Source: a virus | Taxonomy: Duplodnaviria; Caudoviricetes | Strand: one strand, 5' to 3' | Length of the DNA stretch: 64,000 nucleotides | Virus record (IMG/VR): IMGVR_UViG_3300009185_000001 | Coordinates: 1 to 64,000 of that record | Shown here: positions 1,346 through 21,145 of the stretch, piece after piece | Layout: the number at the start of each line of letters is the position of its first letter | Position numbering within the stretch: position 1 is the stretch's first letter | Program-made: the position numbers and the translations under genes | The notes under the pieces: model-generated | What the model was told of the DNA's origin: nothing | Seen by the model: only the letters and a program-made list of their open reading frames with translations | Databases searched by the model: none

Positions 1346-1621
1346 ATGAAAACATTTAATGAAACATTTGAAATGTTGATGGAAGGGTTTGAGAAGGAAA
1401 AGAAAGAAGGGTTGCATGGTTGGTTTTCAAGAAATCATGGAAAGGGATGGGTAAATTGTAAAAAAAGTAGAAAGGGCCACATAGTACCGTGTGGTAGAAA
1501 AAAGGCAAGCGGTGGTAGTTATCCAGCTTGCAGACCTACACTATCCGCTTGTAATTCAAGAAAAAGATTAAAAAAAGGATCAAAGAGAATATCTTGGAAA
1601 AAAGGCGATAAGACTAAATGA
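1346..1621 (+). CDS. Small basic Cys-rich protein (GL..WF...GW..C...PCGR...YP.CRP)
   Basis: Recurrent phage motif; MKTF..-type N-terminus. Confidence 0.7.
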   Translation: MKTFNETFEMLMEGFEKEKKEGLHGWFSRNHGKGWVNCKKSRKGHIVPCGRKKASGGSYPACRPTLSACNSRKRLKKGSKRISWKKGDKTK

Positions 1622-1995
1622 AAAACAAAGACCAAATATTATTGGAAAGTATTTATAATAAAATTCTTTTAGAAAAAAAAGAAACTCTTTCGATTGACGA
1701 ATTTATCGATAAACGTTCCGCTGGTGCAAAAAAGATTCAGCAACAAGCAGAAGCAAAAGGCGGACCAGCATTATTAACATCTGTACATTTTAAGGCAAAA
1801 GAAAAACCATACGAATACTGTTCAAATAATTTTGATGACATCGAAAATATTACAAAAAAAGCCGATGAAGTATTTGATAAATTAAAGAATTGGAAAGAGA
1901 TGTCCCAAAGAGATTTTCAACATTATATGGGAATGTTAGAAGCATATGGCGAGATTTTTATAAAGATAAAGAAACCGAATAGTTTGGTTAAGTAA
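1618..1995 (+). CDS. Hypothetical protein with shared N-terminal leader
   Basis: ATGA overlap with the previous gene; N-terminus MKNKDQILLESIYNKILLE. Confidence 0.7.
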   Translation: MKNKDQILLESIYNKILLEKKETLSIDEFIDKRSAGAKKIQQQAEAKGGPALLTSVHFKAKEKPYEYCSNNFDDIENITKKADEVFDKLKNWKEMSQRDFQHYMGMLEAYGEIFIKIKKPNSLVK

Positions 1996-1999
1996 TATT

Positions 2000-2263
2000 A
2001 TGCCCTATACAATAAAAAAGAAAAAACAAGGATACAAAGTCTGTAAAAAAACTGGTGGAAAATGCTTTAGTAAAAAACCTCTTACAAAAAAAGGGGCAGT
2101 TGCTCAGATGGGAGCAATTATGTCAAATGAAAATAAAACACCATTAGAACTTCTTTTCATTGAAGCTTGTTGGAACAATTACAAACAAGTTGGAATGAAA
2201 AAGAAAGGAAGTAAAATGGTTCCTAATTGTGTTCTTAAAAAGAAATCAAAGACTAAACGGTAG
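2000..2263 (+). CDS. Small basic protein with EACW..YKQVGMKKKG.KMVPNCV motif
   Basis: Recurrent T4-like phage motif; TAAGTA late-type motif at 1989-1994. Confidence 0.7.
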   Translation: MPYTIKKKKQGYKVCKKTGGKCFSKKPLTKKGAVAQMGAIMSNENKTPLELLFIEACWNNYKQVGMKKKGSKMVPNCVLKKKSKTKR

Positions 2264-2644
2264 GGGATTGTCTTTGTTTTCTGTGATTTGAAATTCTATA
2301 TTAAAGGGTTTCTTAATAGGTCGAATGAAGAAACAATCTGGATGTTTTCCTAAATACTGAAGAGTCACGGGACATAGAGTTCCTTGCATGTCTTTATATT
2401 CATATAAAGCCCAGTCATCGCCCATATCTTCCACTTTTTTAATTTCTATCTGATCATCGAAATTTTTTTCCAATGAGAATTCAATATCGATTCCACGATG
2501 GCTTCCTGCCCATACGCCCTGTTCTTTAAGAACATAATCAATTAGTTCGCTAAAACCTCCTACAAAAGGTTCTTTTTCGATGCTTTTTGAGGCATCATCG
2601 AACATCCACGTTCCACTTTCTTTATAAATTGTTATCGTTTGCAT
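2246..2644 (-). CDS. DUF6717-like protein
   Basis: YKESGTWMFDD....EPFVGG.SE.ID pattern. Confidence 0.55.
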   Translation of the reverse strand: MQTITIYKESGTWMFDDASKSIEKEPFVGGFSELIDYVLKEQGVWAGSHRGIDIEFSLEKNFDDQIEIKKVEDMGDDWALYEYKDMQGTLCPVTLQYLGKHPDCFFIRPIKKPFNIEFQITENKDNPLPFSL

Positions 2645-3110
2645 TGATTTTTGGTGTTAGAATATACTTTCTTATAGCATCTCTATCATCAATGTCAACA
2701 TCAAAATTGTTTTTTATAAAACCAGTAGTAACAAACCTGTCGTATAATCTTGCTCTGTTCTTGTCATTTTTGTTAGCAATAAAATATACATCCTTCACAT
2801 AACGAATATATTGAGTAATAAATTGATTGAAAATATTTATTACTGCACCAAATACTTTTTGAGAAGCTCCTTTTTCGCCAGTATTTAAAATCGACATAGG
2901 GTGTTCTTCATATTCTTCATTTGTATTAGAAAATAAAAAACTGGTTGATTTAGTATCTTTTTGTATAGAAAAGACAACATCATATGTCAATCTACCAATA
3001 CTAAATTCGTAACTTATATCAACTTCTTTTCCCCTATCTTTTAGTGTTTTGTTTATGTTTTCCGGAACATAATCAAATGCTTCTAGATAGAAAAATTCTT
3101 TAAACTTCAT
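2622..3110 (-). CDS. Conserved phage hypothetical protein
   Basis: Overlapping packing; TG..GA..VF..V..I and R.RLY.R motifs. Confidence 0.6.
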   Translation of the reverse strand: MKFKEFFYLEAFDYVPENINKTLKDRGKEVDISYEFSIGRLTYDVVFSIQKDTKSTSFLFSNTNEEYEEHPMSILNTGEKGASQKVFGAVINIFNQFITQYIRYVKDVYFIANKNDKNRARLYDRFVTTGFIKNNFDVDIDDRDAIRKYILTPKINANDNNL

Positions 3111-3775
3111 TCCAACGGACCTTTAAGAGCGTTTTTTAATTCCTTTTCATACCCACCAATTACATCCACAAGAGTTTTTGGAATTTGCATACCTTTCATA
3201 AAGTATAGATATGCACATCTTTTTGCGGTATCTGGATTCGTAGCAATGATTTTTAACATTGGTTCTGGAACTAATTTATTTTTATGAAGATATTCAAGAG
3301 CCTTATCAAGTGCTTCGGGTGCGGTTGGTATTGATGGAGATTGAGCGTATTCAATAGCAGCTTTATCTGCATAATCATCTGCTGTCATTCCTTGTTGTGC
3401 ATTAGCACCTCCTGCTGTTGCTGCTGTCATTGCTGCGGCTGCTCCCATGCTTTTGAGCCAGTTTTCCTGTACAATTGAATAAGCTTCTTTTAAAGAATCT
3501 AAATCATTTTCTTTTTTGCAACATTTTGATCCACAATTACATTTTCCCTTTTTATGTTTCTTAGATTCGGTTATATCATCTCCACCGTCTTCGTCACCTT
3601 CATCTCCACCTTCTACCATATCTCCACCTTCAAAATCTTGAGAGTCTGTAGATGTTGGTTCTTCGGCGGTTATGTCTTCTTCGGTTTCGTCTTTAAAACC
3701 TTCCATATCATCATCTTCTTTTAACAAAATTTTGATATATGCTTCTTCTAAATTTATTTTGTCGGATTTATTCAT
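3107..3775 (-). CDS. Acidic low-complexity protein with shared leader (possible head-internal protein)
   Basis: MNKSDKINLEEAYIKILLKE; second internal copy DLDSLKEAYSIVQE. Confidence 0.65.
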   Translation of the reverse strand: MNKSDKINLEEAYIKILLKEDDDMEGFKDETEEDITAEEPTSTDSQDFEGGDMVEGGDEGDEDGGDDITESKKHKKGKCNCGSKCCKKENDLDSLKEAYSIVQENWLKSMGAAAAMTAATAGGANAQQGMTADDYADKAAIEYAQSPSIPTAPEALDKALEYLHKNKLVPEPMLKIIATNPDTAKRCAYLYFMKGMQIPKTLVDVIGGYEKELKNALKGPLE

Positions 3776-3815
3776 ATTATTTTATGTTTTTTTACAATTT
3801 CGGATCGTCTTTTGA

Positions 3816-5150
3816 TTATGGATTGTAATCTACTGCTATGCTATCCGGTCTTTCGCCAGAAAGTACTTCTCCTCCTCCACCTTTATATAGAAATGGATAC
3901 TTTTCTTTTGGATAGAATTCTTCAAAATACTCTTTTGCAATGCCAGCGTTTAAAAGGTTTTCTATTTGAATTTTATTTTTTCCTATAAACGTCCGCTTTA
4001 GCGCAAGTGCGTTTTTGGGTTCAAAATTTACTAACATCGGGGGAGAACTCCATTGAGGTTCTCCTTCATATCTTGGAACTCTTTTTGCAGTCTCATGGAA
4101 CATTTCACCTTCTACTACGCCTTGAGCAGGTACATATCCATTATATTTATATACAAAAAGTTCTGGCTCTAATAATTTAAATCTTTTATCATATTTATGT
4201 ATTAAATTTTTATTTATACTTTTCTCTCCTTTATATCCATGCCATCCTCCTTTGTTTTTGTTATTAAGCATTTCTTCGTCAAACAATCCCAACTCTATTC
4301 CTCTTTTATTTGCCCAAAAATAACGTTTGTCAGTATATCCTACGAGTTCACCATCTAAAAAGCATTTAAGTCTTTGTGCAAAATAATATAAAAGGGTTAC
4401 TTGTCTACCTTTTGGATCCTCTTTAAGATTTCCATTTTCATATTCCTGTCCCTCCCACATACCGTTTCCTTGTTCATCAAGATCTGTTGCTTCATCATTG
4501 ATATAGTATATCCCATCTATCCATCCATCTTTTACGTCTTCTTCGGGAGTTTCGCCTTCATCTTTTGTTTTGATACTTTGAATAGCTACGTTTTCTGCTC
4601 TATTTCCAAAAACAGGTAAATTTAATAATTTTCTTGCAGTTTTAAATATATCAAAAAGCTCTCTCGACCTTCCGGGAATTGGATTAGGACGTTTTTCTGT
4701 TTTCATCGATCCAAAACTTTTAACTCCATACATATATTGATTATAATTATTAGTGGCTAGCAATTCTTGTGGATTTTCATCTGATGATAAAGTTTTTAAT
4801 ATCATTTCTAGAATTGTACGTGAATCCAGCGTTTCTTTATTATGTTCTAAGTCTGTAATCGGCATACCTGCATCCTTAAATTTTTTTAATATATTAAGTA
4901 TTGCATTAACTGCTTCTAAATTGTTTGGATCAGATTTAAAGAAATCTAACGCGTTTTTTAATGCTTCCTCAAGTAATTTTCGTTCTTGCTCATTCCTTAC
5001 GTTCAATCTTTGAACTTTGCCCGGTGTTATTATTTTTTTTCCATAACCAATTGATCTATTACTGCCGCCATAAGATGCTCTGTCTCTTATCATTTCATTG
5101 AAAACCTTTAAATACGCATTTTCTAATAATATTGTATCTTTATTTCTCAT
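3816..5150 (-). CDS. Hypothetical protein with shared leader
   Basis: 444-aa ORF; MRNKDTILLENAYLKVFNE; GTAAGTA upstream at 5172-5178. Confidence 0.75.
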   Translation of the reverse strand: MRNKDTILLENAYLKVFNEMIRDRASYGGSNRSIGYGKKIITPGKVQRLNVRNEQERKLLEEALKNALDFFKSDPNNLEAVNAILNILKKFKDAGMPITDLEHNKETLDSRTILEMILKTLSSDENPQELLATNNYNQYMYGVKSFGSMKTEKRPNPIPGRSRELFDIFKTARKLLNLPVFGNRAENVAIQSIKTKDEGETPEEDVKDGWIDGIYYINDEATDLDEQGNGMWEGQEYENGNLKEDPKGRQVTLLYYFAQRLKCFLDGELVGYTDKRYFWANKRGIELGLFDEEMLNNKNKGGWHGYKGEKSINKNLIHKYDKRFKLLEPELFVYKYNGYVPAQGVVEGEMFHETAKRVPRYEGEPQWSSPPMLVNFEPKNALALKRTFIGKNKIQIENLLNAGIAKEYFEEFYPKEKYPFLYKGGGGEVLSGERPDSIAVDYNP

Positions 5151-5262
5151 ATATTTTTTTTTATGTATTTCTACTTACCTATTTATTTGTATTTTATATA
5201 TTAAAAAAATGTATTTACATTTTTTAATTAAAGTGGTTACTCTTTAAGATAAATTTTAGCAT

Positions 5263-5502
5263 ATGACAATTAAAGAATTAATTCAGGTGGTTGAAGATGC
5301 ACACGAATTGCTCGTTGCAGATTTTAAATCTGAAACTAAAAAAACACCAAAAGATGACGATTTACTCCTTCATGTTAAAACGCTTTATAAACAAGGATTG
5401 GAAAATACAATCTTAGAAGAGTTGTTTTTAGATGATTTTAATTGTCCAGAAGACTTTGAAAAACTCGTTTTAGTATGTGCTGCTAAATTAAAATCTTCTT
5501 AA
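5263..5502 (+). CDS. Hypothetical protein
   Basis: ORF fills an intergenic gap; TTTACA-type promoter upstream. Confidence 0.6.
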   Translation: MTIKELIQVVEDAHELLVADFKSETKKTPKDDDLLLHVKTLYKQGLENTILEELFLDDFNCPEDFEKLVLVCAAKLKSS

Positions 5503-6187
5503 AGTATCCTGAAAAACTTTCCAAGGAAAGATCAGTATCTACGAGCTTTGCTTTATAGTCATAAAGATTTTTGATATATCCACTATGTCTTAAATTTTTA
5601 AAAACTAAATTTCCAATTGAAAATTCTCCATCAGTTTCTAATCCCACTTTTCTGAGATTTTTTATCTCATCTCGTATTTCTTTTAATTCTTCTAAAGAAA
5701 CTTTATTTTCAATCGCATTATCTATAATAGATTGCATTTCTTTTGTTTTTTTCAAAACTTCAGAATTGTTTAACGTTATTTCAGAATGAACAGGCGTTAC
5801 CAACCATTTACCTTTCTGCAAATCATAAACCGCTTTATCTTTTAATAGATCTTCTTTTTCTTTAAGATTAACTTCTACAGGATATCCCTTTATAAAAATG
5901 TCATGTTCTTTATTATATAGCTTACTTTTAACATCGAAGTAGTCCTTTATTGTAAGTTCATCACAATATCCATCTTCAATAGAAACTATGATATGCAAAT
6001 CCCAATCGCTTTCATCTGTCCATTCATAAGTGCAAAGAGATCCCGTAAGAAAAATATTTTTAATTTCTATAGGAGCTTCGATAGTATCTAAAAAGTCTTG
6101 CGAAATCGAAAGAAGTTTCTTTTTTATAGGATCATATAGATTGTTTCTAACATCCCATATTAATGGATTTAATTTTTTAGATTCCAT
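5483..6187 (-). CDS. Pol-beta superfamily nucleotidyltransferase
   Basis: LTGSL...W...SDWDLHI (GS + DxD) and a later E in PVEV. Confidence 0.8.
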   Translation of the reverse strand: MESKKLNPLIWDVRNNLYDPIKKKLLSISQDFLDTIEAPIEIKNIFLTGSLCTYEWTDESDWDLHIIVSIEDGYCDELTIKDYFDVKSKLYNKEHDIFIKGYPVEVNLKEKEDLLKDKAVYDLQKGKWLVTPVHSEITLNNSEVLKKTKEMQSIIDNAIENKVSLEELKEIRDEIKNLRKVGLETDGEFSIGNLVFKNLRHSGYIKNLYDYKAKLVDTDLSLESFSGYFKKILI

Positions 6188-6257
6188 GATTTTATGAATT
6201 ATAATTTATATTTATATTTAAACTGTATTTAAAATTATTAAATATTAATAATATTTT

Positions 6258-6488
6258 ATGACAATACTTAATTTTAAGTATATATTTGCAATTGTAGCAT
6301 TGTTAACATTTTTCAGTTTAGTTATATATAATATTATAGGAAAAACCGATTGTTTCTGGAATATATTCTATTCATTGGGAATTGGAAGTCTTGTTATATC
6401 AATAGCATCATTTTTATTTTTATATATAGGAAATAAAATATTTTTAAATTCAAGTTTTAAAAAAACCAATAAAAAAATTAATTATTGA
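6258..6488 (+). CDS. Small membrane protein (2 TM)
   Basis: Two hydrophobic stretches. Confidence 0.55.
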   Translation: MTILNFKYIFAIVALLTFFSLVIYNIIGKTDCFWNIFYSLGIGSLVISIASFLFLYIGNKIFLNSSFKKTNKKINY

Positions 6489-6511
6489 AATATTATTGAT
6501 TTGTATTAATT

Positions 6512-6718
6512 ATGATTATGGAAGAAATAAAATCACCTGAATTAATAGAAGAACACATTTATTTAGTTACTAGTAAAGACAAAGATGAGCAAGGAAATTC
6601 TTTGGTAGAAATTGCTCAGTTTAGAAAAAACAAATTTTGGTTTTTTGGTTGGGAAGTTCCGGAACCTGTTGAAAAATTTGAATCTTGCAAAGAATTAGTA
6701 TTTGGAATAAAGGAATAA
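6512..6718 (+). CDS. Hypothetical protein
   Basis: Co-directional ORF with protein-like composition. Confidence 0.55.
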   Translation: MIMEEIKSPELIEEHIYLVTSKDKDEQGNSLVEIAQFRKNKFWFFGWEVPEPVEKFESCKELVFGIKE

Positions 6719-6777
6719 AATGATGTAAGTATATTTAAATAGTTTTTTTTAATTGATGGTTGTAAATATATAAACAT

Positions 6778-7017
6778 ATGAGTAAAACAATAACACTAAG
6801 ACCCGCACAAACAGTAACAGTAGAAGAAGTAAAAATTCTTGCCGTTAGAGATCTTTTTGAAGAAAAAAAGATCATTGCTCGCATTAAAGATCTTCCAGTA
6901 GGAGTTATCCTTTGGGAAGGCGACGAAGAATATGCAGCAGCTTCTAATTGGACAAATGAATCTGCACAAGCAAGAGTCGAAGAACTTTTGAATTCTGATT
7001 CTTTGAAGTTTGTTTAA
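6778..7017 (+). CDS. Hypothetical late protein
   Basis: GTAAATA at 6762-6768; balanced composition. Confidence 0.65.
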   Translation: MSKTITLRPAQTVTVEEVKILAVRDLFEEKKIIARIKDLPVGVILWEGDEEYAAASNWTNESAQARVEELLNSDSLKFV

Positions 7018-7020
7018 ATT

Positions 7021-7050
7021 TGATGGTATCGAAAATATTTGATACCATTA
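7021..7050. terminator. Stem-loop downstream of the 7017 stop
   Basis: TGATGGTATC-N10-GATACCATTA inverted repeat; no clear U-tract. Confidence 0.4.
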
Positions 7051-7070
7051 AGAATAAAGCCAAATTTTTA

Positions 7071-7240
7071 CGTACACGGTTCTCGCCGTAGTAAACAATT
7101 AGGCTCTCTGGATGAAAACTTGGAAGAGTTAGTAGTCCCCTGCGATTAAGAACGGTGCTTCCACACTGTTGGGATCGTTGGTATTTCTAGCCGTAGTTCT
7201 TTTTGTATTCTTGGACGCATAATACAACCCAACAGGCTAC
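7071..7240. ncRNA. Candidate structured non-coding RNA
   Basis: About 45% GC (77/170 counted) with no ORF of 60 aa or more; several potential helices, e.g. 7166-7173/7228-7235 and 7203-7209/7221-7227. Confidence 0.3.
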
Positions 7241-7256
7241 TTTTTAAAAAAAGTAA

Positions 7257-7284
7257 TTGACATATATATTATTTCCTGTAATAT
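7257..7284 (+). promoter_or_regulatory. Sigma70-type early promoter
   Basis: TTGACA-N16-TAATAT. Confidence 0.65.
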
Positions 7285-7305
7285 TAGCCCCCTAACCCAA
7301 AAATT

Positions 7306-8412
7306 ATGGCTATATTCAACGAAAAGGAAAAACAAAAATTAATCGACTTTGCTATTTCTCTCAGAAAAGAGGGAAAGACAAATACTGAAATTTCAACATT
7401 ATTGAACATTCCTCGTTCAACACTATTTGGTTGGATTGGTGGAAGCACTAAAAAAATTATCATCGAAGAGACTATTACAACAGATGAAAACGATTTGTTC
7501 AATGTTAATTCTCTTCAAAGTTTATACAACAACATTCAAAGCAAGGATGAAACTATTCTAAAATTTATTGAGAATATTAAGCCTATTAGTTATCCTGCTC
7601 CTGTCAGGAGTAAAGTTTCTCAATCTCCAAATAAAATTGCAGTCGTTATTGGTGATCTTCATTTCGGAATGGAGCATCAACCCACTATTGAGATTTTTTA
7701 CCAAGTAGTTTCTGATTTGAAACCAGAAAAGGTAATTCTCAATGGAGATACTCTTGATATGTTTGCTATTAGCAAATATCCAAAGGACGCTCGACATTTT
7801 CAGTCCCTATCAGATGAACAACAAAGGTATCATAAATTTTTGAAAATTCTTCATGATATTACAGTTGATTGGGATTGTGAAATTCTAGAAACGAATGCAA
7901 ATCATTCTGGAAATAGTCAAGAAGGTCGTTATTGGCGGTACATTAGCCAAGGAATTGGAACTCTTGCTTGTCTTCCAAGGGTTCAAGAACTATTGAGCTA
8001 TCAGAATGTATTTTTCCCACAAGAAGATTGGTGCAGGATTAAACTGGTCGATAGTGTAATTCTACCAACAAATCTCATCGTTCAGCATGGAACGGTTGTA
8101 CGGAAACATGGAGGAATGTCTGCTAGGGGAGAATTTGAAAAGATTCTTGCATCGACATTGACTAATCATACTCATCGATTTGGCTGTTCTTCTCAGCGTT
8201 TTCCTTCTGCTGGTCATCGAGAGGAACAAACATTTGTAAACTATGAGAATGCCTGTGCCTGTAGGTTTGATGTTGATTATGTTCAAAACGCAAACTGGCA
8301 AAATGGATTTGCTGTTGTGAATTATACAGATAATACGATTGGCGTTGAACAAGTTGTTGTTCATGGAAACAAGGCTACCGTTTGTTCATTGAATAAAACT
8401 ATAAGGGTTTAA
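7306..8412 (+). CDS. HTH + calcineurin-like metallophosphoesterase
   Basis: N-terminal HTH (NTEISTLLNIPRSTLFGW); GDLH, GDTLD, NH and HTH motifs. Confidence 0.8.
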   Translation: MAIFNEKEKQKLIDFAISLRKEGKTNTEISTLLNIPRSTLFGWIGGSTKKIIIEETITTDENDLFNVNSLQSLYNNIQSKDETILKFIENIKPISYPAPVRSKVSQSPNKIAVVIGDLHFGMEHQPTIEIFYQVVSDLKPEKVILNGDTLDMFAISKYPKDARHFQSLSDEQQRYHKFLKILHDITVDWDCEILETNANHSGNSQEGRYWRYISQGIGTLACLPRVQELLSYQNVFFPQEDWCRIKLVDSVILPTNLIVQHGTVVRKHGGMSARGEFEKILASTLTNHTHRFGCSSQRFPSAGHREEQTFVNYENACACRFDVDYVQNANWQNGFAVVNYTDNTIGVEQVVVHGNKATVCSLNKTIRV

Positions 8413-8457
8413 TTTTTTTAATACTATTATATCCAATCTAGTGTAAATAGTTTGGAT

Positions 8458-8622
8458 ATGATAACAAACGAATTAACACTCTTAACAAACATTGATAATA
8501 AATTAGGTCAGATAGTAGATAGATTAAACAATACTACAATAACAGAAACCAATCCAGAAATAGAAACTGAGGAATCAGAAGTAAATTCTAACTCAAGATT
8601 ACTATTGGAAGTAATAGTTTAA
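8458..8622 (+). CDS. Small hypothetical protein (54 aa, not in the ORF track)
   Basis: MITNELTLL...LLEVIV; GTAAATA at 8443-8449; abuts the next gene. Confidence 0.55.
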   Translation: MITNELTLLTNIDNKLGQIVDRLNNTTITETNPEIETEESEVNSNSRLLLEVIV

Positions 8623-8623
8623 T

Positions 8624-9193
8624 ATGAAAATATTATTGCTTCCAATAGTTTCTTTCTTTTTACTGAGTTGTACTGTTTACACAGAAAAACAATCGGAAGC
8701 ATTGTCAAAAACTGTATATGCTGCCAAAGATTCATTGGATTCTGCTAGATTGGATTTAACAGATAACTATCTTACAGAAGCATCCCGAATAGTTCGTCCT
8801 CCGAAGGAAAGAATTGAAATCAAGTCTATATATAAATCTTCTACTATAGAACAAGGCAAAAAAAGAGTTTTGGTCGTTCCTGAAAAATATAAAAATGATA
8901 CAGTAATTGTAGTAAGCTCGATTGAATATGATCAGCTTTTAAAAGACAAAGAAGTATATAAGCAGATACAAGAAGATAATACAAGACTAATAGAAACTAA
9001 AAAAACCGTAGACGAAGAATTAATTAAACAACAAGAATATAATAATAAGATGGTTAAAGATCTTAATAATATGCAAAGAAAGCTAGTGGAAAAGGATCTT
9101 GCCATATTACAAAGAAATATTGTTATTGCATTACTGAGTTTGATTATAGCATTTGGTATTTATATTAGATTCAAAGGTGGTTTAGTATTTTAA
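8624..9193 (+). CDS. Lipoprotein with C-terminal TM; candidate unimolecular spanin
   Basis: Lipobox LLSC at residues 13-16, coiled-coil body, C-terminal TM; adjacent to holin and endolysin. Confidence 0.55.
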   Translation: MKILLLPIVSFFLLSCTVYTEKQSEALSKTVYAAKDSLDSARLDLTDNYLTEASRIVRPPKERIEIKSIYKSSTIEQGKKRVLVVPEKYKNDTVIVVSSIEYDQLLKDKEVYKQIQEDNTRLIETKKTVDEELIKQQEYNNKMVKDLNNMQRKLVEKDLAILQRNIVIALLSLIIAFGIYIRFKGGLVF

Positions 9194-9218
9194 TCCTCGT
9201 ATAAACTAAGTAGTTTAT

Positions 9219-9650
9219 ATGTGGCAGAATATTGTAGGAATTACAAAAAGCGCAACAGCCTTTTTACAAAATGGAGTTGCACCCCCAAATACACCAGAGT
9301 TTTTAAAAAAAACAATGGAAGATCAAAATCATTTTTCTTCCAAGAAGTTTTTTATAATTTTTACTTCTATTTTAATGTTAGCTATTCTTTATTACTCAAG
9401 TGTTTTTATTTTGAGCTTATTCAGTTCACCGGAGCATATAACAGCTTATGTAACAATTTTTTCCAAAACTATAGAAATATTTGCGATTATTATAGCTGCA
9501 TATCTTGGGGTCCAATGTGCAGTTGATTTAAAATATAATAGTTCATCCAATGCATCATCACAAGGATACACAGAAATAATAAAAAAAGATATTGTTTTAA
9601 CTAATAATGCAAAAGAAGATGATTATAATATTTCGGAGGTAGAAGTATGA
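9219..9650 (+). CDS. Putative holin (2 TM)
   Basis: Two TM segments, charged C-terminal tail, overlaps the endolysin start. Confidence 0.5.
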   Translation: MWQNIVGITKSATAFLQNGVAPPNTPEFLKKTMEDQNHFSSKKFFIIFTSILMLAILYYSSVFILSLFSSPEHITAYVTIFSKTIEIFAIIIAAYLGVQCAVDLKYNSSSNASSQGYTEIIKKDIVLTNNAKEDDYNISEVEV

Positions 9651-12930: not shown

Positions 12931-12967
12931 TTGCTTTATAGTATTTTTAATGTTAAGTCTTAAAAAA

Positions 12968-13825
12968 TTAAGCAGTTAGCGTTCTACAATAAGAGGTATA
13001 ATCAACCCAACCGAAGGAATCATATCTTTTAAATCCATCTATGTTGATGTATGCACTATATCCATCGTCTACATTTATAAATGTACCATATGAAACAAAA
13101 ACCGGAGTTCTATTGCTATTGCCAAAATAAAAGCTATAAGCATTTGGAAGTATTACTTCGGTGATCGCAGAAGCAGCATTTAAAATACTTTTTGTAGCAA
13201 CTATCATTTTTGCACTTAGAGGAACATTTACAGGAGTTATATATTGTCTAGAATTCCAAACAATATCAGTAAGAACCCATTGCTGAAAATCTTCAACGAA
13301 ATTTGAACTTACAGGTGCTGTGTTATTATTTAAAACCCAATTAACAGCAAGTCCAACTGCTCCGCAAGTTGTTGAAAGACTTCCTCCTTGACCTCTTCTT
13401 TTTACATATCCAACATCCCCATCGATAGTGATTCCGAGATGCGGCATTACATTAAGATATAATGCACCAGATACTGCTGGAATATGACTAGCCCATGCAA
13501 TTAAACCAACAGTTCCTGCAAATGGATAGCCACCAATTCCACCTTCCATAAACGGTCCTAGAAATGGTTGTAAGGAAACTGGTTGCTGTCCTATATTATT
13601 ATTTCCGTATATAGGAGCATCTATATCATCTGCACAAATTGACTGAGCCATTAAAACGGTATTTGTATTAAAACCAGAAACATTTTTAATAAGTGTTGCT
13701 GCAATACTGCCAAAGCTTTGTGCTGTAATTGCACTTGATAATTTAAAAGAATTTGTGGAACTATTATCTCCCCAACTGTAATTAACAGAAGTAACCTTTT
13801 GGGTATATGTTGTTGGATTTGCCAT
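12968..13825 (-). CDS. LCIB/LCIC-family beta-carbonic anhydrase, copy 2
   Basis: ICADD (C64, D66), F..GG.GG.P..G..G..A..SH, PH.GI..DG.VG...R.G (H129), TCGA (C154). Confidence 0.85.
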   Translation of the reverse strand: MANPTTYTQKVTSVNYSWGDNSSTNSFKLSSAITAQSFGSIAATLIKNVSGFNTNTVLMAQSICADDIDAPIYGNNNIGQQPVSLQPFLGPFMEGGIGGYPFAGTVGLIAWASHIPAVSGALYLNVMPHLGITIDGDVGYVKRRGQGGSLSTTCGAVGLAVNWVLNNNTAPVSSNFVEDFQQWVLTDIVWNSRQYITPVNVPLSAKMIVATKSILNAASAITEVILPNAYSFYFGNSNRTPVFVSYGTFINVDDGYSAYINIDGFKRYDSFGWVDYTSYCRTLTA

Positions 13826-13828
13826 AAT

Positions 13829-15034
13829 TTATAGTAAAGTGTTTTTAAATGCTGTTGTATAGTCTACCCATCCCGAAGAATTGTATTTAGCAAAGCTGCT
13901 TACATCTACATACGCATCATATCCATCATCAGTATTTATGAATGTTCCAGAGCAGAAATATACATCTGGAGCAAATCCTACACTAGCAGCAATAGCATAT
14001 GCAGCTGGAAGATTTGTTTCTACCCAAGATTGTATAGCACTTCTTATTATTTCCGTAGCAACTCTCATTCTATCGGCGGGAGCAGTAGCTAAAAGCGTAC
14101 TTCTATTATTCCATAGAATATTTGTTAATGTAAATTGTTGATAATCATCTTTAACAGAAAATGCAAATGATGTGTTAGGATCTACTGCATTTGAAGCCAC
14201 AACGGTTGAAATTGCTAAGTCAACGGCTCCACAAGTGGAAGATAATATTCCTCCCTGTCCTCTTCTTTTCATAAATCCAACGTCTCCGTCAAATGTGATT
14301 CCAATATGAGGAGCAGCATATAAGAAAAGTGCTCCACTCAAAGCGGTTGTTGTATGTGTTAACCATGCAACCAATCCAGTAATTCCAGTGTGAGGATAGC
14401 CTGCTAATCCACCAGCCATAAATGCTCCGAGATATGAAGACATTGAAACCGGAAATTGTCCTATGTTTCCAATAAACTTAGGAGCATCCACATCGTCAGA
14501 ACATATAGATTCTGCTACAACAATGTTATCGGGAGTATATCCAAATTCTGATTGTATAAAGTTTATTGTTTTAGAACCAAATGTTTCTGATAATAATGCA
14601 TTTGGATATATTTGCTGTATTGTGGATGAATAAGAATCGGCGGAATTATATGCCATTACTGCTCCGTATGCTAATGTAATATTACGAATTTCTGTTTTAA
14701 ATTCAAATCCAACGGGCAATTCATAAACTGGTAATCTTCCGGTGGTTGTATTAATTGCTGTCAATCCAGAAATTTTACATGCGGACAAAACCTTTATACT
14801 TTGAAAGTTTCCATCATGCTGTAATTTATCATCAATAACAACAAATCCATTGCTATTGGGTTCATTTACAATTAAAGAATTTAATGCTTTATTAGTTTCT
14901 TGTAAGTTAACTATATAACCAGTCTGTGCGAACAATGCTCGATTTTGATCATTGTTTACTTTTATCCAAGAATTATTCCAACCAACATTTGGATTTATTG
15001 GATTACTAGCAATTACTGGTGTTAAAGATGCCAT
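13829..15034 (-). CDS. LCIB/LCIC-family beta-carbonic anhydrase, copy 1, with about 130-aa N-terminal extension
   Basis: YPNAL...F, GYTPDN, ICSDD (C178, D180), PHIGI (H243), TCGAV (C268). Confidence 0.88.
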   Translation of the reverse strand: MASLTPVIASNPINPNVGWNNSWIKVNNDQNRALFAQTGYIVNLQETNKALNSLIVNEPNSNGFVVIDDKLQHDGNFQSIKVLSACKISGLTAINTTTGRLPVYELPVGFEFKTEIRNITLAYGAVMAYNSADSYSSTIQQIYPNALLSETFGSKTINFIQSEFGYTPDNIVVAESICSDDVDAPKFIGNIGQFPVSMSSYLGAFMAGGLAGYPHTGITGLVAWLTHTTTALSGALFLYAAPHIGITFDGDVGFMKRRGQGGILSSTCGAVDLAISTVVASNAVDPNTSFAFSVKDDYQQFTLTNILWNNRSTLLATAPADRMRVATEIIRSAIQSWVETNLPAAYAIAASVGFAPDVYFCSGTFINTDDGYDAYVDVSSFAKYNSSGWVDYTTAFKNTLL

Positions 15035-15043
15035 GTTATATCA

Positions 15044-15051
15044 TACTTATC
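15044..15051 (-). promoter_or_regulatory. Late promoter motif
   Basis: GATAAGTA 9 nt upstream of the 15034 ATG. Confidence 0.6.
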
Positions 15052-15101
15052 CTTTATAATGTTTTTTATTAATATTATTTTAAAATATACTAAGTAGTTT
15101 T

Positions 15102-15383
15102 ATGAATAAAAAAGATTTATTACTTTTAGCCGAAGCATATGATGATGTTGTTGAAAATGAAATTCCATATGAAATTTCTCCGGAACAAGCACTTGAAAAT
15201 GAAAAGGAAGAAGTTGGTATGCTAAAAACTAGCTTGGAGAATACTCATAGAAAAATCGAAATGCTATTGAAGCTAATTGAAGATGGGCATGAAATTGAAC
15301 CTTGGATGATGCAAAAACTTCCAACTGCATTAAAAGCTATTTCTGAAGTTGCCGATGTTGTTCAAACCAAACACGGCTATTGA
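15102..15383 (+). CDS. Hypothetical protein with shared leader
   Basis: MNKKDLLLLAEAYDDVVENE; CTAAGTA at 15090-15096. Confidence 0.7.
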   Translation: MNKKDLLLLAEAYDDVVENEIPYEISPEQALENEKEEVGMLKTSLENTHRKIEMLLKLIEDGHEIEPWMMQKLPTALKAISEVADVVQTKHGY

Positions 15384-15395
15384 TAAATTTTTTTG

Positions 15396-15424
15396 TTGCA
15401 TTTTTAATTATATTTTATTATAAT
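15396..15424 (+). promoter_or_regulatory. Sigma70-type promoter
   Basis: TTGCAT-N17-TATAAT before tRNA-Val. Confidence 0.65.
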
Positions 15425-15432
15425 TTGAAAAC

Positions 15433-15507
15433 GGAAGATTAGCTCAGTGGTAGAGCGGTAGTTTTACACACTATTGGTCAGGAGTTCGAATCTCTTATCT
15501 TCCACCA
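15433..15507 (+). tRNA. trnV: tRNA-Val(UAC)
   Basis: Canonical cloverleaf; anticodon TAC; TTCGAAT T-loop; CCA end. Confidence 0.95.
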
Positions 15508-15519
15508 TTTTTAAAATGT

Positions 15520-16107
15520 ATGAATACGATTAGACAAGAAACTGTTTTAGTTTTAAATAGATGTTGGCAAGCAATTAACATTAAAAGTCCAGCAGAAGCC
15601 ATCTCAATGATGTATGATGATTCTGCAACTGGTTTGGATGTAAGAGGAGAGGATAATATGGTCCCATTAAAGTGGGAAGATTGGATTTCTATGCCTTATG
15701 ATGAAAATTCTTCATATATAAAAACAGTAAGTTTACAAATCAAAATCCCAAAAATTATCGTACTTTCTAATTTCGATAGAGTTCCTTTCAAGCGTCCGAA
15801 GTTTACAACCAAAAATCTTTGGATCAGAGATGGTGGAATTTGCCAATATACCGGAAAAAAACTAACCCCCAACAATGGAAACATAGATCATATAATTCCT
15901 AAAAGTAAGGGCGGTAAAAGTATTTGGACTAATTGCGTATTGGCTCATAAAGAAGTAAATGCAAAGAAAGCAGATAGAACTCCGGAAGAGTCTGGCTTGA
16001 CATTAATTAGAAAACCATTAGCACCTAGAGATCTTCCAGTAAGTCTTTATATTAAAAATAAACACAATATAAAAGAATGGGATATTTTTTTAAAGGATTT
16101 AAATTGA
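15520..16107 (+). CDS. HNH endonuclease
   Basis: VLVLN, RD...CQY, IDH.IP.SKGG...W.N.V.AH..VN..K motifs. Confidence 0.85.
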   Translation: MNTIRQETVLVLNRCWQAINIKSPAEAISMMYDDSATGLDVRGEDNMVPLKWEDWISMPYDENSSYIKTVSLQIKIPKIIVLSNFDRVPFKRPKFTTKNLWIRDGGICQYTGKKLTPNNGNIDHIIPKSKGGKSIWTNCVLAHKEVNAKKADRTPEESGLTLIRKPLAPRDLPVSLYIKNKHNIKEWDIFLKDLN

Positions 16108-16108
16108 T

Positions 16109-16516
16109 ATGAGAATTTCTTGGAAAGATTATGCTCTAAAAATGGCAGAAGTCACCACTCTTCGTTCCGAAGATCCTTTTATGAAGGTTGGTGCTGTTGT
16201 TTTAAATAAAGAAAATAGAGTTGTTGGTGTGGGATATAACGGACTTGCTTCTGGAAAAAATGTTACAGAAGAGTTTTGGAAAGATAGAGACGAACGCAGA
16301 AAATACATGATACATGCAGAAGCAAATGCTCTTCTTAATGTTAAAAGAGGAGAAGGTGATTTACTTGCGTGTACATTACTTCCTTGCGGTTCCTGTGCAA
16401 CATTGATAGCTGCACACGGAATCAAACATGTAATATATAATGAAGTTTACAAGAGAGACACATCTTCCTTAGAGATTTTTAAATTCTATGGAATAGAATG
16501 TGAACAATTAGTCTGA
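16109..16516 (+). CDS. dCMP deaminase
   Basis: HAEANAL and PCGSC Zn-binding motifs. Confidence 0.9.
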   Translation: MRISWKDYALKMAEVTTLRSEDPFMKVGAVVLNKENRVVGVGYNGLASGKNVTEEFWKDRDERRKYMIHAEANALLNVKRGEGDLLACTLLPCGSCATLIAAHGIKHVIYNEVYKRDTSSLEIFKFYGIECEQLV

Positions 16517-18955
16517 AATAATATCTTCCAGACAATATAGAATCGAAACGACTCTATCATTGTCTTCCAATACTTCATCTATCAATTTTGTTGTTATTGG
16601 ACCAAATTCATGTTCTTCCATAAAATCTTTTATAAATTTTATAAGATCTTGTGTTTTAATTTTTTTCAATGCTCTTAAAATGTTAGAATCCAATGCACCT
16701 ATCTTGTAATGATCTTGAATTGTGTGTAACAATTTTTCTATTTTTAAATATTGTATTCTATTTTTAATAAGATTTGGAAGTTTATATGGAGTTTCTTCTT
16801 TTTTGAAATCAATTTTCTCGTAATTTTCCAATAAATTTTCGAATTTTGTCTTAAATGGTTTTAATCTACAAAAATTTTTATATCTAGATTCTTTCAGTTC
16901 TTCGTATTGAGATTTTCTTATAGGTAAATTATAATAGAAATATCTTTCTGCTAATATTTTGTGTCTTAGATTTGTACTGATATTTTCTTTCATTTCAAGT
17001 CTATTAGCTTCGATGTCTTCATCGCTATCAGGATTTGTTGATTTCTCTGCGTTCTTGTCCTGAACATATTGTACTAATATCTGCGAAGCTAATATTCCAA
17101 TTTCCTTTTCTTCAGGAGTTCTTGCACCACCAGTAGTTAAATAACTCGCAAACTCATCTAAAAACACCAATAACCCCTTAGCTTTTAATCTTGGCGTGAT
17201 AGCCGCCATAAGTTGTTTATTTTTGTTGTATGCGTTATCAAGCGTTTCTAATACAGCTACCATATCATTATAAATACGTTCTTCGTTAGAATTAGGTTTT
17301 ATGTTTTTTAATTTGCTTACATCTGGTTTATATACATCGCCAACTTTTGTACCAAAAGCATTGGCTGCTTTGTTTACTGTTTGTGGGATTATATTAAATG
17401 GTATTGCAAATCCTCCTCGACTCCATGATTCTTGATCATAATCTGCTCCTCTTTTTCTTAAATTTTCCAATTTTATGCCGCCTTTTTCTTTTAAATACAA
17501 CCAAAAATCATCAGCCCATTTACTACCACAGTCGCTTTGTGCTGCTTTAATAACATCTTCTTGCCACCACGAAGAAACCACATCTACTTTATCAGTTGTT
17601 TTTTCTAAGTTTACATATTGTTTTATCTTTTCATAGTATCTATCATTCTCCGGTGTTCGAAGCTGGGGGTCTGATTTAATAATTTTTGTATAAACTATTG
17701 CAAATGACTTATCATAATTAAGTCTTTTAAAAGTTTTATTAAATCTTTCAATTGCTCTTGGAGAAGGTCTTATACCCTTTTCTTCTGGTTCTTGATAAGG
17801 TTGTTCCCATTCAGGAGCCGCAGATATAGCCGTTGCAGTATCATCAACAGTATTTTTTATAAGATTTTGGTTTTGAAGACCAAGTCTTTTATATGGTGCT
17901 TCTGCTACAAATCCTATAATATCTTTCTTAAATCCTTTTTTCTCTGCATAGTCAAACCAACTGGTAGCATCTAAATAGACATAATATTGTGTAGCTCTGG
18001 TCATTAATGCTTCTTGTTCAAAAACATCTCTAAAAACACCTCCAGATGCTTTTCCGTGTGGCTTTACGTTTCCAGCACCACAAATGGTTATACCATTTGA
18101 TAATTTATTTCCTCCCCATAATCCCTCATCAAAAAGTTTTATAAAAAGGTTGAATACATTTCCATTTTGAGTTCTATTAAACTCATCTATAAAAAAAATT
18201 CCCTTTGCATTGCCTTCCATAGCAAGCGTCATAGGAGCCTCTTTTATGTTATAAGTATCTACTGCAAGTTTATCTGCCTTTTCGTCTCCTGTTGGTTCTG
18301 GTCGATTCAATAAATCTGGAATACCCATAATTTCCATAGGAATTATTTGATCACCATTAACTTGAAAAAGTGTAAAAACATTTCCACTTCGAATTTCGTT
18401 TTCAATAAAAGATGCATTCTTTTTAAACTCTGGTGGAAGTTTGGCATAATCTATAAAAGATTTAGCTCCTTTTTCATCAGATGTATCCTTAAACCTTTTT
18501 TGATATTCATCAGATTCTCTCCATCTTTTATATTCAACAGAATTTTTAATCATTTTATTAAGCTCTCTTCCTCTAGCATCCAACCCAAGTTCAGCTGCTT
18601 TTTCATTACAAAAATTATAAATACCTTCTGTTTTTCCTGTAGAAGGCTCTCCGAAAAACAACATAGTTCTTTTATTTTTGTCTGGTTCTTCGTTATAGTT
18701 TTCATCCCAAGCTTTATTCAGATCAACCATTGCCATATGTGTTAACATAGGTTTTAGGTTTCTAACCGCAGCCAAATTTTTTAAATTTGGCATTGGTGCA
18801 TTGTCTTCCGTTGGGTTTATATCATATTTTTTACCAAACATAGCAGAAACCTCTTCATCACTTTCATCGTCTTCTTTTAATAAACGCTCATTATTTTCTC
18901 TTGAAATAATTTTATAATACATTTCTTCTAGGTTAACAATATCATTATTTTTCAT
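16508..18955 (-). CDS. MoxR-type AAA+ ATPase with long C-terminal extension
   Basis: Walker A GEPSTGKT, Walker B FFIDEFNR, sensor GAGN, Arg finger ALMTR, PSPR motif; shared leader. Confidence 0.8.
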   Translation of the reverse strand: MKNNDIVNLEEMYYKIISRENNERLLKEDDESDEEVSAMFGKKYDINPTEDNAPMPNLKNLAAVRNLKPMLTHMAMVDLNKAWDENYNEEPDKNKRTMLFFGEPSTGKTEGIYNFCNEKAAELGLDARGRELNKMIKNSVEYKRWRESDEYQKRFKDTSDEKGAKSFIDYAKLPPEFKKNASFIENEIRSGNVFTLFQVNGDQIIPMEIMGIPDLLNRPEPTGDEKADKLAVDTYNIKEAPMTLAMEGNAKGIFFIDEFNRTQNGNVFNLFIKLFDEGLWGGNKLSNGITICGAGNVKPHGKASGGVFRDVFEQEALMTRATQYYVYLDATSWFDYAEKKGFKKDIIGFVAEAPYKRLGLQNQNLIKNTVDDTATAISAAPEWEQPYQEPEEKGIRPSPRAIERFNKTFKRLNYDKSFAIVYTKIIKSDPQLRTPENDRYYEKIKQYVNLEKTTDKVDVVSSWWQEDVIKAAQSDCGSKWADDFWLYLKEKGGIKLENLRKRGADYDQESWSRGGFAIPFNIIPQTVNKAANAFGTKVGDVYKPDVSKLKNIKPNSNEERIYNDMVAVLETLDNAYNKNKQLMAAITPRLKAKGLLVFLDEFASYLTTGGARTPEEKEIGILASQILVQYVQDKNAEKSTNPDSDEDIEANRLEMKENISTNLRHKILAERYFYYNLPIRKSQYEELKESRYKNFCRLKPFKTKFENLLENYEKIDFKKEETPYKLPNLIKNRIQYLKIEKLLHTIQDHYKIGALDSNILRALKKIKTQDLIKFIKDFMEEHEFGPITTKLIDEVLEDNDRVVSILYCLEDIISD

Positions 18956-18966
18956 ACTTTATACTT

Positions 18967-18974
18967 TATTTATC
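18967..18974 (-). promoter_or_regulatory. Late promoter motif
   Basis: GATAAATA 11 nt upstream of the AAA ATPase ATG. Confidence 0.55.
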
Positions 18975-19005
18975 TTAACTATATATTTATTCTACATTTA
19001 TTTTT

Positions 19006-20058
19006 TTAGGAATGAGGAACATCTGCCGTATATACTTTCATTAATGGAGATAATTTTTCAATTCCAGATTTAAGACTATAGCTATCTGCACATATTAATG
19101 CTATTTTTTCATTAGCAGTCGGAACTTTTGGACTATCTTCAACACCACCATCCGTAAAGACTAAAAATCCGTCTAATGGTTCCATTCGTTGAGATTTTAT
19201 ATAGTTTGTAACATTTGATATATTAGTTCCCCCCCATTTTATATCTAAAGCACCAAATAATAAACTTTTTAGTTTTTTCTTATCGCTTACTAATTGAAAC
19301 AATACATTACTATCCTTAATATGTTTATTATTTGATGAAAATTCTTCTGTAGTATCTATTTCTATATGAGCATAAACCCTTGTATCAAAAAATAAAACAG
19401 TTAGAACAACCTGACTCAATTGCATTGCTATCTTATATATTTCGCTTAAAAATATATTTAATACATCACTACCAACAGATCCACTAGTATCTACGGCTAT
19501 GACGGTTCTTAGTAAATCTTCTTCTCCTACTTCTCTATAAGATGGTTCATATATATAAGATCCAATATATCTAGTATCTGGTCTGTTTCTTAATTCTTCA
19601 ATTTTTGGTGTTTTGTCCATCATTCTATACAAAACACCTTGCCAATCAATTTTTAAAGGAGTATATTTTCTATTAAATCTACTGCTTCCACTGCCGCTAT
19701 CATTCGATCTTCCGATTCCACTTTCTTTTAATCTTTCCTCTTCTTCTCTTTCAATCCTAGCGGCTATTTCTTCTACATCTGAATTTATTTGAGATTGGGA
19801 TTTTTCTCTTTCTTCTTTAGATTTTCTAGTATATTGCGGATTTCCTTTATATTTTTCTGGAAGATCGGTTACCTCTACCTCATCATCTTTTCCTAAATGA
19901 GAATCAAGACCCGGAACATGTATATCTTTATCTAAAATATCTTTTAGAGTGGGTGGTTTTGATTTACCGCTTTTAGAACCTTCGGGACCAACAGGACTAT
20001 CTTTAGGTTGTTTTCTATACACCTGAATATCATTTATATTGTATGTTTTAGTTTTCAT
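19006..20058 (-). CDS. vWA-domain protein (DUF2201 C-terminal-like)
   Basis: MIDAS DTSGS, GGT and FTDG; W...L..M motif before the vWA domain. Confidence 0.85.
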   Translation of the reverse strand: MKTKTYNINDIQVYRKQPKDSPVGPEGSKSGKSKPPTLKDILDKDIHVPGLDSHLGKDDEVEVTDLPEKYKGNPQYTRKSKEEREKSQSQINSDVEEIAARIEREEEERLKESGIGRSNDSGSGSSRFNRKYTPLKIDWQGVLYRMMDKTPKIEELRNRPDTRYIGSYIYEPSYREVGEEDLLRTVIAVDTSGSVGSDVLNIFLSEIYKIAMQLSQVVLTVLFFDTRVYAHIEIDTTEEFSSNNKHIKDSNVLFQLVSDKKKLKSLLFGALDIKWGGTNISNVTNYIKSQRMEPLDGFLVFTDGGVEDSPKVPTANEKIALICADSYSLKSGIEKLSPLMKVYTADVPHS

Positions 20059-20062
20059 TTTT

Positions 20063-21145
20063 TTATTTTGCTAATCTATCTGCTTCTTCTTTACTAATAG
20101 GACTTACCATAACTTCTCCCGTTTTTTTATCTATGTGATTTACTATTCCATATTCAGTAGGATTGTATTTAGTTTCTATGACTTGCCCAACTTTTAATGT
20201 ATTTTCTTGATCCTCTCCTTCACCTTTACCTTCACCCTTACCTTCACCCTTACCTTCACCCTTACCTTCACCCTTACCTTCACCCTTACCTTCACCCTTA
20301 CCTTCACCCTTACCTTCACCCTTACCTTCACCCTTACCTTCACCCTCGCCTTCGCCCTCGCCTTCGCCTTCGCCTTCTCCTTTACCTTCACCCTCTCCCT
20401 TTTCACCTTGTTCGCCTTGTTGTTCACCTTGTTGTTCACCTTGTTCACCGCCTTCTGGTGGTTGTGGTGGTTCCGGTGGTTTTTTTGCAGTTTCCATCAA
20501 TTTTTTGTATATTTGTTCTGCGGTTAAATTTGTAATATCAAAATCTGTTATTCCCCACACTTCAGAATCTATATAAAACCTACCATTTTTATAAACTGGA
20601 GTGCAGGTTTCGGCTGATTGTTCATTTCCTAAGTCATCTATTAATTTAACAAATCGAGGAATATTAACTTTTTTAAATTTTTCTATGTCCTTTTCATCTC
20701 TTTTGGTTTTCAATGCATGATCTACGTGTGCAGACATCATCTGTGCAATAACCTTATTCATTTCAAAATCTGTTGCAATGTTCCATAATCTGCGATGTCT
20801 ACCCTCTTGTCTTCCGAATGTTGAATTATATATGTGATATGCTTCATGGACAAATACCGCAGCAGCTTCTGTTGTTGTTACTTGTTTTAATAAAAAATCT
20901 ACGTTGCAAAATAATTCTCCTGCCCGATTAATTCCCATGGTTGGATTCTTTTTATCTTTTGATGGTATTATTCTTATATATTCTTTCAAAAAAAGAGCCA
21001 ATTTTCTATCAAATCTTGCAATTATGTTTATAGCGGCTGTTACTTTTTTATCGTATTTTATAAATTCTTCATCAGATTCAAATACAGATTCTTTTAGATA
21101 TATAGATTTATACGCATTTTCCAACGAGGTGTATACATTTTTCAT
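20063..21145 (-). CDS. Zincin-like metallopeptidase (DUF2201 N-terminal-like) with G/E/K linker and SH3-like tail
   Basis: HEAYH, WNIATD..MN; start moved to MKNVY after GATAAATA at 21157-21164. Confidence 0.8.
20217..20336. repeat. 12-bp tandem repeat (CCTTCACCCTTA) encoding (KGEG)10
   Basis: Nine perfect units at 20229-20336 plus one unit with a synonymous change. Confidence 0.95.

Follow-up and report, generated by a model that had tools for sequence, protein, structure and literature searches.

A strictly conserved N-terminal leader on unrelated late proteins of uncultured T4-type phages, a candidate capsid-targeting propeptide

The DNA analyzed here (the window, 64,000 nucleotides) covers the opening 64 kb of a virus record that consists of one contig of 202,880 bp (IMG/VR record IMGVR_UViG_3300009185_000001), a complete genome with direct terminal repeats and a G+C content of about 31%. 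Six otherwise unrelated open reading frames (ORFs) in the window begin with the same peptide of about 20 residues, hereafter the class-1 leader. We found that this leader is shared by a large set of unrelated proteins in one uncultured clade of T4-type phages, and we lean toward the view that it is an amphipathic-helix propeptide that works like the capsid-targeting sequence (CTS) of the T4 internal proteins and that is predicted, from its sequence, to be removed by a protease.

Class-1 leaders in the genome

The preliminary description of this DNA had reported six N-termini that start alike, at 1618+, 3775-, 5150-, 15102+, 18955- and 21145-, and we confirmed all of them. In the whole genome the leader opens 11 ORFs in the form M-K-x-K-D-x-I-L-L-E-x-A-Y-x-K-V-L-x-E, six in the window and five at 182.6 to 186.4 kb (starts at 182611+, 183376+, 184543-, 185818- and 186422-). 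An arc of about 41 kb across the arbitrary contig ends holds all 11. The consensus given earlier was roughly right; the family form is M-[KR]-x-K-D-x-I-L-L-E-x-A-Y-x-x-[VI]-L-x-E.

A hidden Markov model (HMM) was built from nine of the leaders and run on the six-frame translation of the genome. The members scored 32 to 43 bits, the next matches were the N-termini at 184543 and 21145, on which the model had not been trained, and the remainder was noise. With a broader HMM, the 21145 leader, which is degenerate and was not among the training sequences, scored 9.0 bits, while the 184543 leader was borderline at 6.8 bits and convincing by eye. The suspicion that shuffled proteomes might yield the motif as often was not borne out: in ten shuffles searched with the broader HMM nothing reached 8 bits (maxima 1.4 to 7.3 bits).

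On the plus strand of the window, the leader MKNKDQILLESIYNKILLEK (1618..1677; HMM 33 bits) begins a 125-aa ORF (1618-1995) whose ATG overlaps the stop codon of ORF 1346-1621 (ATGA); the locus L004 carries an ortholog with the same leader. The leader MNKKDLLLLAEAYDDVVENE (15102..15161; HMM 28 bits), also on the plus strand, begins a 93-aa ORF (15102-15383). On the minus strand, MNKSDKINLEEAYIKILLKE (3716..3775; HMM 27 bits) begins a 222-aa ORF (3107-3775), MRNKDTILLENAYLKVFNEM (5091..5150; HMM 38 bits) a 444-aa ORF (3816-5150) and MKNNDIVNLEEMYYKIISRE (18896..18955; HMM 25 bits) an 815-aa ORF (16508-18955), and the degenerate leader (21086..21145; HMM 9.0 bits) begins a 360-aa ORF (20063-21145). 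The body of the 815-aa protein is AAA+ ATPase-like (phrog_1297 ATPase match), that of the 360-aa protein is a DUF2201_N putative metallopeptidase, and the other four are ORFans.

The ORF at 1090-1296 on the plus strand (MKDQKNSNTLSFEEYYQIVE) was weighed as a further member but, scoring 1.3 bits, was not accepted. By HMM, look-alikes inside the 1618 protein and in other places did not rise above noise, apart from the copies in the 3775 and 54070 proteins described below.

A portable module conserved as a peptide

A degenerate DNA pattern encoding M-x-x-K-D-x-I-L-L-E-x-A-Y matched 85 loci in IMG/VR and coincided every time with the first ATG of its ORF; across 596 Gb of genomes from bacteria and archaea it matched nothing. 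Conservation extended to positions that the pattern left unconstrained (V/I at 16, L at 17, Glu at 18-20), and similarity among the leader proteins ended after about residue 20. An exhaustive profile search of 1.84 billion cluster representatives returned 326 clusters at E<=0.001, and the match began at residue 1 in 139 of the 143 representatives that were parsed. When the first 22 residues were removed, the bodies fell into 67 families among 108 locus proteins and into 105 families among 138 representatives. These observations support the leader as a portable N-terminal module on unrelated bodies. A tblastn search of 50,697 GenBank phage records gave nothing useful with either the 444-aa cargo or a 30-aa leader segment, and a word-indexed homolog search with a 114-aa leader protein as the query retrieved only the query itself.

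The very strictly conserved positions of the leader are K4, D5, I7-E10, A12 and Y13. Its invariant residues are written with many synonymous codons, including six codons for Leu and four for Ala. Since synonymous codons vary freely, selection acts on the peptide and not on the RNA or DNA, and an explanation at the RNA or DNA level was rejected.

The genome itself belongs to a T4-type myovirus, as indicated by BLAST matches to T4 gp18, gp19, gp20, gp21, gp23, gp25, gp41, gp43 and gp44, and further to gp46, gp47, gp55, UvsW, UvsX and rIIA. No GenBank phage has a tail sheath that shares more than about 40% identity with its own. Among 40 leader-bearing contigs, Peptidase_S77 was found in 11, that is, in all four complete genomes (211-227 kb) and in seven fragments, and by CheckV completeness all leader-bearing fragments scale to genomes of about 200-230 kb. 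Compared with this genome, the leader-bearing relatives have capsid proteins that are 63-85% identical and scaffolds that are 38-64% identical. On the grounds of the common genome size, Peptidase_S77 and the related capsid proteins and scaffolds, the class-1 leader is a trait of one uncultured clade of T4-type phages. Strict copies of the leader number five in this genome and one to three in the four complete relatives.

Late promoters of the leader genes

The box xxTAA(A/G)TA stands 5-17 nt ahead of the ATGs of structural genes and is absent before replication genes, some of which have TTGACA-like boxes. A position weight matrix (PWM) trained solely on 12 structural genes gave scores of 5.7-13 bits to 9-10 of 12 candidates (the 11 leader genes and ORF 1090, which was later rejected). 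As controls, 13 replication and nucleotide-metabolism genes scored no higher than 3.4 bits, and 0.6% of random 35-mers reached 8 bits. The two genes with low scores, 1618 and 3775, sit immediately downstream of genes that point the same way and possess promoters. Among viral leader genes 58% scored at least 7 bits, compared with 21% of other ORFs.

In the window, late-promoter-like sites were found at 5169-5181 for the 444-aa ORF (TAGGTAAGTAGAA; PWM 9.4) and at 15087-15099 for the 93-aa ORF (PWM 8.0), and a late promoter at 21154-21166 for the 360-aa ORF (PWM 11.1); GATAAATA lies at 18964-18976 beside the 815-aa ORF. A single strong match at 1067-1079 (PWM 13.3) precedes a run of four co-oriented ORFs on the plus strand (1090..2263; 68, 91, 125 and 87 aa) that contains one class-1 leader gene and one gene of the second class described below.

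The PWM scores, the contrast with the replication genes and the gp55 late-sigma homolog encoded in the genome make late expression of the leader genes well supported as a prediction from sequence. The preliminary description had called these proteins late, and the promoters agree, since the leader genes share the promoter type of the structural genes and the replication genes do not. No Shine-Dalgarno sequence accompanies the late boxes of the window (1067-1079, 5169-5181, 15087-15099, 21154-21166, 58676-58688 and others); with the box only 5-17 nt from the ATG, the late mRNAs are probably leaderless or nearly so.

A prohead-protease motif at the leader end

The T4 prohead protease gp21 cleaves after L/I-x-E (PMC9026906). 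The 10-residue CTS of the T4 internal proteins ends in I-A-E (T4 ipII and ipIII). Besides a gp21-type Peptidase_S77 and a scaffold, the leader-bearing clade encodes a gp23-type capsid protein whose maturation site is conserved; at the position of the T4 gp23 cut (LTE/A, the slash marking the cut) this capsid protein retains W-C-[LIF]-x-E followed by a Gly/Ser/Asn-rich stretch. An [LIV]-x-E end at residues 18-21 was present in 43 of 57 unique leaders, compared with 10% of ten-residue windows elsewhere in the same proteins, and at the leader end in 106 of the 143 representatives from the profile search. A further L-L-E at residues 8-10 is invariant. Most leaders end at a sequence that fits the motif of the prohead protease, which is the predicted cut site.

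The leader has the features of an acidic amphipathic helix with a pI of about 4.5 and no hydrophobic core. In an AlphaFold2 model of the 93-aa member, whose mean pLDDT (predicted local distance difference test) was only 67, the leader stood apart as a helix of its own (residues 3-18), and the linker behind it (residues 20-24), at the predicted cut, had low confidence. A Sec or Tat signal peptide was ruled out for the leader, which lacks the pattern of a basic n-region and a hydrophobic core.

The prohead protease gene of this genome (L091:3878-5656, minus strand; G000 146877-148655), which lies outside the window, has 592 codons, compared with 222-233 in relatives. Its 368-residue insert runs from Cys82 to Asn449, is followed by Ser450, begins directly after GELNHPS and holds a LAGLIDADG-like FLGIWLAEG. 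From its sequence, the insert looks like an intein adjoining the catalytic-His region.

Genomic positions of the leader genes

In one subclade of relatives the gene order is protease, leader gene, scaffold and capsid protein, and the slot between protease and scaffold holds five unrelated bodies (141, 178, 186, 301 and >86 aa). The equivalent slot in this genome holds a small 80-aa protein, which we infer from its position and N-terminus to be gp67-like. Leader genes also recur upstream of the 54070-type gene, at the boundary of nrdB and nrdA, and behind the homologs of 12736 and 8624. The nrdB-nrdA cassette brings its own TAAATA box. In L015 and L043 the leader cassette with its late box sits exactly at the nrdB-nrdA junction, and positions 50503-50540 of the window are the empty site, with flanks nearly the same as in those two loci. 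Leader genes also form arrays of up to five genes.

The commonest neighbours of the leader genes are syntenic nrd, neck and head genes. No recurrent enzyme family or partner gene was found within +/-5 kb of the 85 leader loci, and Pfam searches of the neighbours identified only a zinc ribbon, a nucleotidyltransferase-like protein, PhoH and a PD-(D/E)XK nuclease. We rejected a leader for a linked modifying enzyme, of the kind known from ribosomally synthesized and post-translationally modified peptides or from radical-S-adenosylmethionine-associated tags, because no enzyme occurs regularly in that range around the 85 loci.

The adjacent genes 185818- and 186422- have about 45 identical upstream bases and leader codons in common. 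Promoter and leader together probably double as a recombination handle, as promoter/stem-loop cassettes (PeSLs) do for early cassettes (PMC2839356).

Cargo bodies

The leader proteins are 29 to 815 residues long, with pI values from acidic to very basic. Searches of Pfam and PHROGs with 20 cargo proteins gave no family except the ATPase match of the 815-aa protein and DUF2201_N in the 360-aa protein. The shortest cargos consist of the leader and a Lys-rich tail (…EE/AKKKVNPWAV…KKK) with a pI of about 10 after the predicted cut; the pI of T4 IPII and IPIII is 9.6. Longer members are mosaics of the leader, a variable middle and the same basic tail. Examples of mosaics with the Lys-rich tail (KKKVNPWAV...KKK) are L024:1717-1929 (-), L032:614-835 (+) and L074:9200-9745 (+).

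In about 8-10 members, as read by eye, a signal-peptide or lipobox pattern follows directly after the leader, for example …IEE/NWKGLLASAAMALSNLLAPQANA/AQ. Segments of this kind are seen in L028:1022-1507 (-), L072:227-688 (+), L061:4262-4681 (-) and the window at 3107-3511 (-). Since the segment abuts the leader, a cut at the leader Glu would leave a canonical signal peptide as the new N-terminus.

The 360-aa metallopeptidase-like protein (20063-21145, minus strand) contains a long (GEGK)n / GEGEGE repeat. A spurious LHPY-repeat ORF lies at 20197-20535 on the opposite strand.

Function of the leader

In T4, the internal proteins (IPI, IPII, IPIII), as well as Alt, carry a CTS, which the prohead protease gp21 cleaves off (Mullaney and Black 1996, reviewed in PMC9026906, PMC3012670, PMC7411985). 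The class-1 leader resembles this CTS in being a short N-terminal peptide on otherwise unrelated proteins of a T4-type phage that ends at an L/I-x-E-type site. The two systems further have in common the gp21-, gp22- and gp23-type head genes, some small Lys-rich cargos and a cargo set that varies among relatives. The leader differs in its far stricter conservation and in its many acidic or large bodies, and it is known here from sequence. It also differs in scale, with 11 genes in one genome and at least 326 clusters overall, compared with four proteins in T4. A second precedent is found in the giant phages phiKZ, 201phi2-1 and SPN3US, whose head and ejection proteins have N-terminal propeptides that are cut after S/A-x-E by gp21-related proteases (PMC9026906, PMC7411985). 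There, too, many head-internal proteins bear removable N-termini that end in Glu, and a targeting role has been proposed; however, those propeptides are up to 110-130 residues long and have no single shared sequence, and the genome organisation is not T4-like.

In the mechanism that we propose, each leader gene would be a cassette with its own late promoter, so that the protein is made alongside the head proteins. The leader helix would dock the protein onto the assembling prohead core, and the gp21-type protease would cleave behind the [LIV]-x-E of residues 18-20 and might make another cut behind the invariant L-L-E (residues 8-10). The mature body, which is highly variable, would then stay alongside the DNA inside the head. 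Docking, cleavage and retention are all steps that we infer, as is delivery of the body to the next cell. The mechanism is of a known kind; what is notable is the strict conservation of the leader and the very large set of unrelated cargos.

The preliminary description had read the motif as the packaging address of head-internal, injected proteins. The module itself, the late promoters, the gp21-type protease, the [LIV]-x-E ends and the slot in the head cluster of relatives speak for the packaging part of that reading, to which injection would be a further step; similarity to the T4 CTS was not found. Several points weigh against a capsid address. The leader (MKxKDxILLExAYxKVLxE) has no sequence similarity to the T4 CTS (MKTYQEFIAE) and, at about 20 residues, is twice as long as its 10. 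The majority of leader genes lie in variable regions, such as nrdB-nrdA, outside the head cluster. About 25% of leaders have no [LIV]-x-E at residues 18-21, and such short motifs arise easily in Glu- and Leu-rich helices. The bodies, acidic to basic and in one case an 815-aa AAA+ protein, differ from the small basic internal proteins of T4. The conservation of the leader is stricter than CTS genetics in T4 would demand, which could point to a different specific partner. Finally, the clade has no cultured representative and is known from sequence alone.

As the main alternative, the leader might be a docking helix for a shared partner other than the head interior, such as another late assembly, a chaperone or a hub protein of the host or phage, in which case cleavage would be unnecessary. 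Its eight strictly conserved positions suggest one specific binding partner, and the location of most leader genes outside the head cluster and the varied size and charge of the bodies would fit as well. In several members the segment after the leader is signal-anchor-like and, if uncut, would put the leader on the cytoplasmic side of the membrane. We nevertheless consider such a helix rather unlikely: no partner gene recurs within +/-5 kb, and neither the enrichment of [LIV]-x-E exactly at the leader end nor the slot between protease and scaffold is explained by it. The cleavage-type motif at the junction would be accounted for if the leader were a pro-sequence that, until a protease removes it, holds the cargo in an inactive or mislocalised state, for example by masking a following Sec signal peptide, with no capsid addressing. 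The roughly 8-10 members in which an n-h-c signal-peptide or lipobox pattern follows the leader, including the relic copy in the 222-aa protein, are in keeping with masking. About 90% of the members, however, have no signal peptide, and masking alone explains neither one invariant sequence on more than 100 unrelated bodies nor the position in the head cluster, so that we regard a mere pro-sequence as improbable.

That the shared 5' end (late promoter plus leader codons) is mainly a PeSL-like recombination handle, with a peptide that has no function, seems to us very improbable. PeSLs are promoter/stem-loop cassettes of T4-like phages (PMC2839356, PMC4122927), and the leader cassettes resemble them: a regulatory sequence is repeated at the 5' border of ORFan cassettes, these lie in variable regions, and replacement takes place at fixed slots. 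The upstream bases and leader codons shared by 185818- and 186422-, the different bodies that close relatives have in the same slots, and the PeSL-mediated shuffling documented in T4-like phages (PMC2839356) are what such a handle would lead one to expect. PeSLs, however, are non-coding and combine early sigma-70 promoters with a stem-loop, whereas here a late promoter is joined to a translated leader that is conserved as protein. Judged on its promoter, which is of the late TAAATA type, the leader did not qualify as a PeSL-type mobile regulatory cassette. A handle acting at the DNA level would also keep its bases, whereas the synonymous sites of the leader vary and its amino acids are invariant. 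Shuffling may occur, yet the selection on the peptide stays unexplained by it.

A bolder form of the capsid-address reading, which we regard as a long shot, is that the leader is a clip-off address for more than 100 unrelated families and that in some members its removal uncovers a Sec signal peptide or lipobox as the new N-terminus; such proteins would be made in advance, travel in the head, enter together with the DNA and be exported by the newly infected host into its own envelope. If the leader is a capsid address at all, a T4-like clade with genomes of about 200-230 kb would carry a large and fast-changing set of packaged proteins, and the T4 internal-protein paradigm would grow from four proteins to hundreds of families. 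Packaged, and possibly injected, phage proteins could then be recognized in metagenomes by a simple sequence rule, and these proteins would be candidates for functions in counter-defence or host take-over. The invariant 20-mer could serve as a reagent for probing cargo recognition by the T4-type prohead core, which is structurally not understood even in T4.

Internal copies and a half-leader

The preliminary description had also pointed to internal copies of the motif in two proteins. The copy in the 222-aa protein (ENDLDSLKEAYSIVQEN; 3461..3511, minus strand), which is followed by the signal-peptide-like NWLKSMGAAAAMTAATAGGANA, is genuine by homology: in BLASTP, residues 86-219 align with the whole of a 146-aa homolog, whose leader at Met1 matches NDLDSLKEAYSIVQEN. 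This alignment indicates that a second leader and an 85-residue linker were acquired ahead of an older leader, of which the internal copy is the relic.

The looser case was the protein at 54070. Its motif NPFDLLYNKILAQE is present, internal and conserved in that family, and the N-terminus of the family is a half-leader (KSYLSVLNE here, NAYLKILEE in homologs). This acidic, conserved 273-aa protein (54070..54891, plus strand) adjoins the neck gene at 55318-55947 (PHROG head closure Hc2), and in relatives a hot spot of leader genes lies immediately upstream of the 54070-type gene. The protein is core-conserved and extremely acidic (EEEGEEEGEEEGEED...), with a repeated hydrophobic-x-K-I-L-x-E-E motif, and was assigned to no family in Pfam or PHROGs. 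It may belong to the prohead core or act like a scaffold.

A second class of leaders

A second class of N-termini (MK-x-F...E) had been proposed alongside the first, and it proved to be loosely defined. Here the ORF at 1346 belongs by orthology (MNFQSLVLELLEE... in a relative), whereas 3110, 57151 and 58606 could not be confirmed as members. The 1346 protein (MKTFNETFEMLMEGFE; 1346..1621, plus strand) has a very basic, Cys-containing 75-aa body with a pI of 10.8 after the leader and resembles a T4 internal protein; its ortholog in L061 reads MNFQSLVLELLEEAF...GLHGWF. The class-2 motif is real but weaker than class 1; in the form M-[KDN]-F-x-x-[LV]-[LV]-E-x-[IL]-L-x-E it stands at the start of small, very basic proteins of late genes, namely 1346 in the window and 109034, 118376, 119680 and 176126 in the rest of the genome. 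A strict regular expression for it gave 2 matches in this genome, compared with 0-1 in shuffles, and 10 viral matches, compared with 0-3. Beyond the window, four late genes have MKF-x-LL-x-ES-LL-NE in common. The motif also resembles scaffold N-termini of the clade, such as MDFKSILKEQF…. Class 2 (e.g., MKTFNETFE... and MKFDLLVESLLNE) loosely resembles the T4 CTS and is closer to it than class 1 is; these phages may use it as their orthodox CTS, and class 1 would then be a second address.

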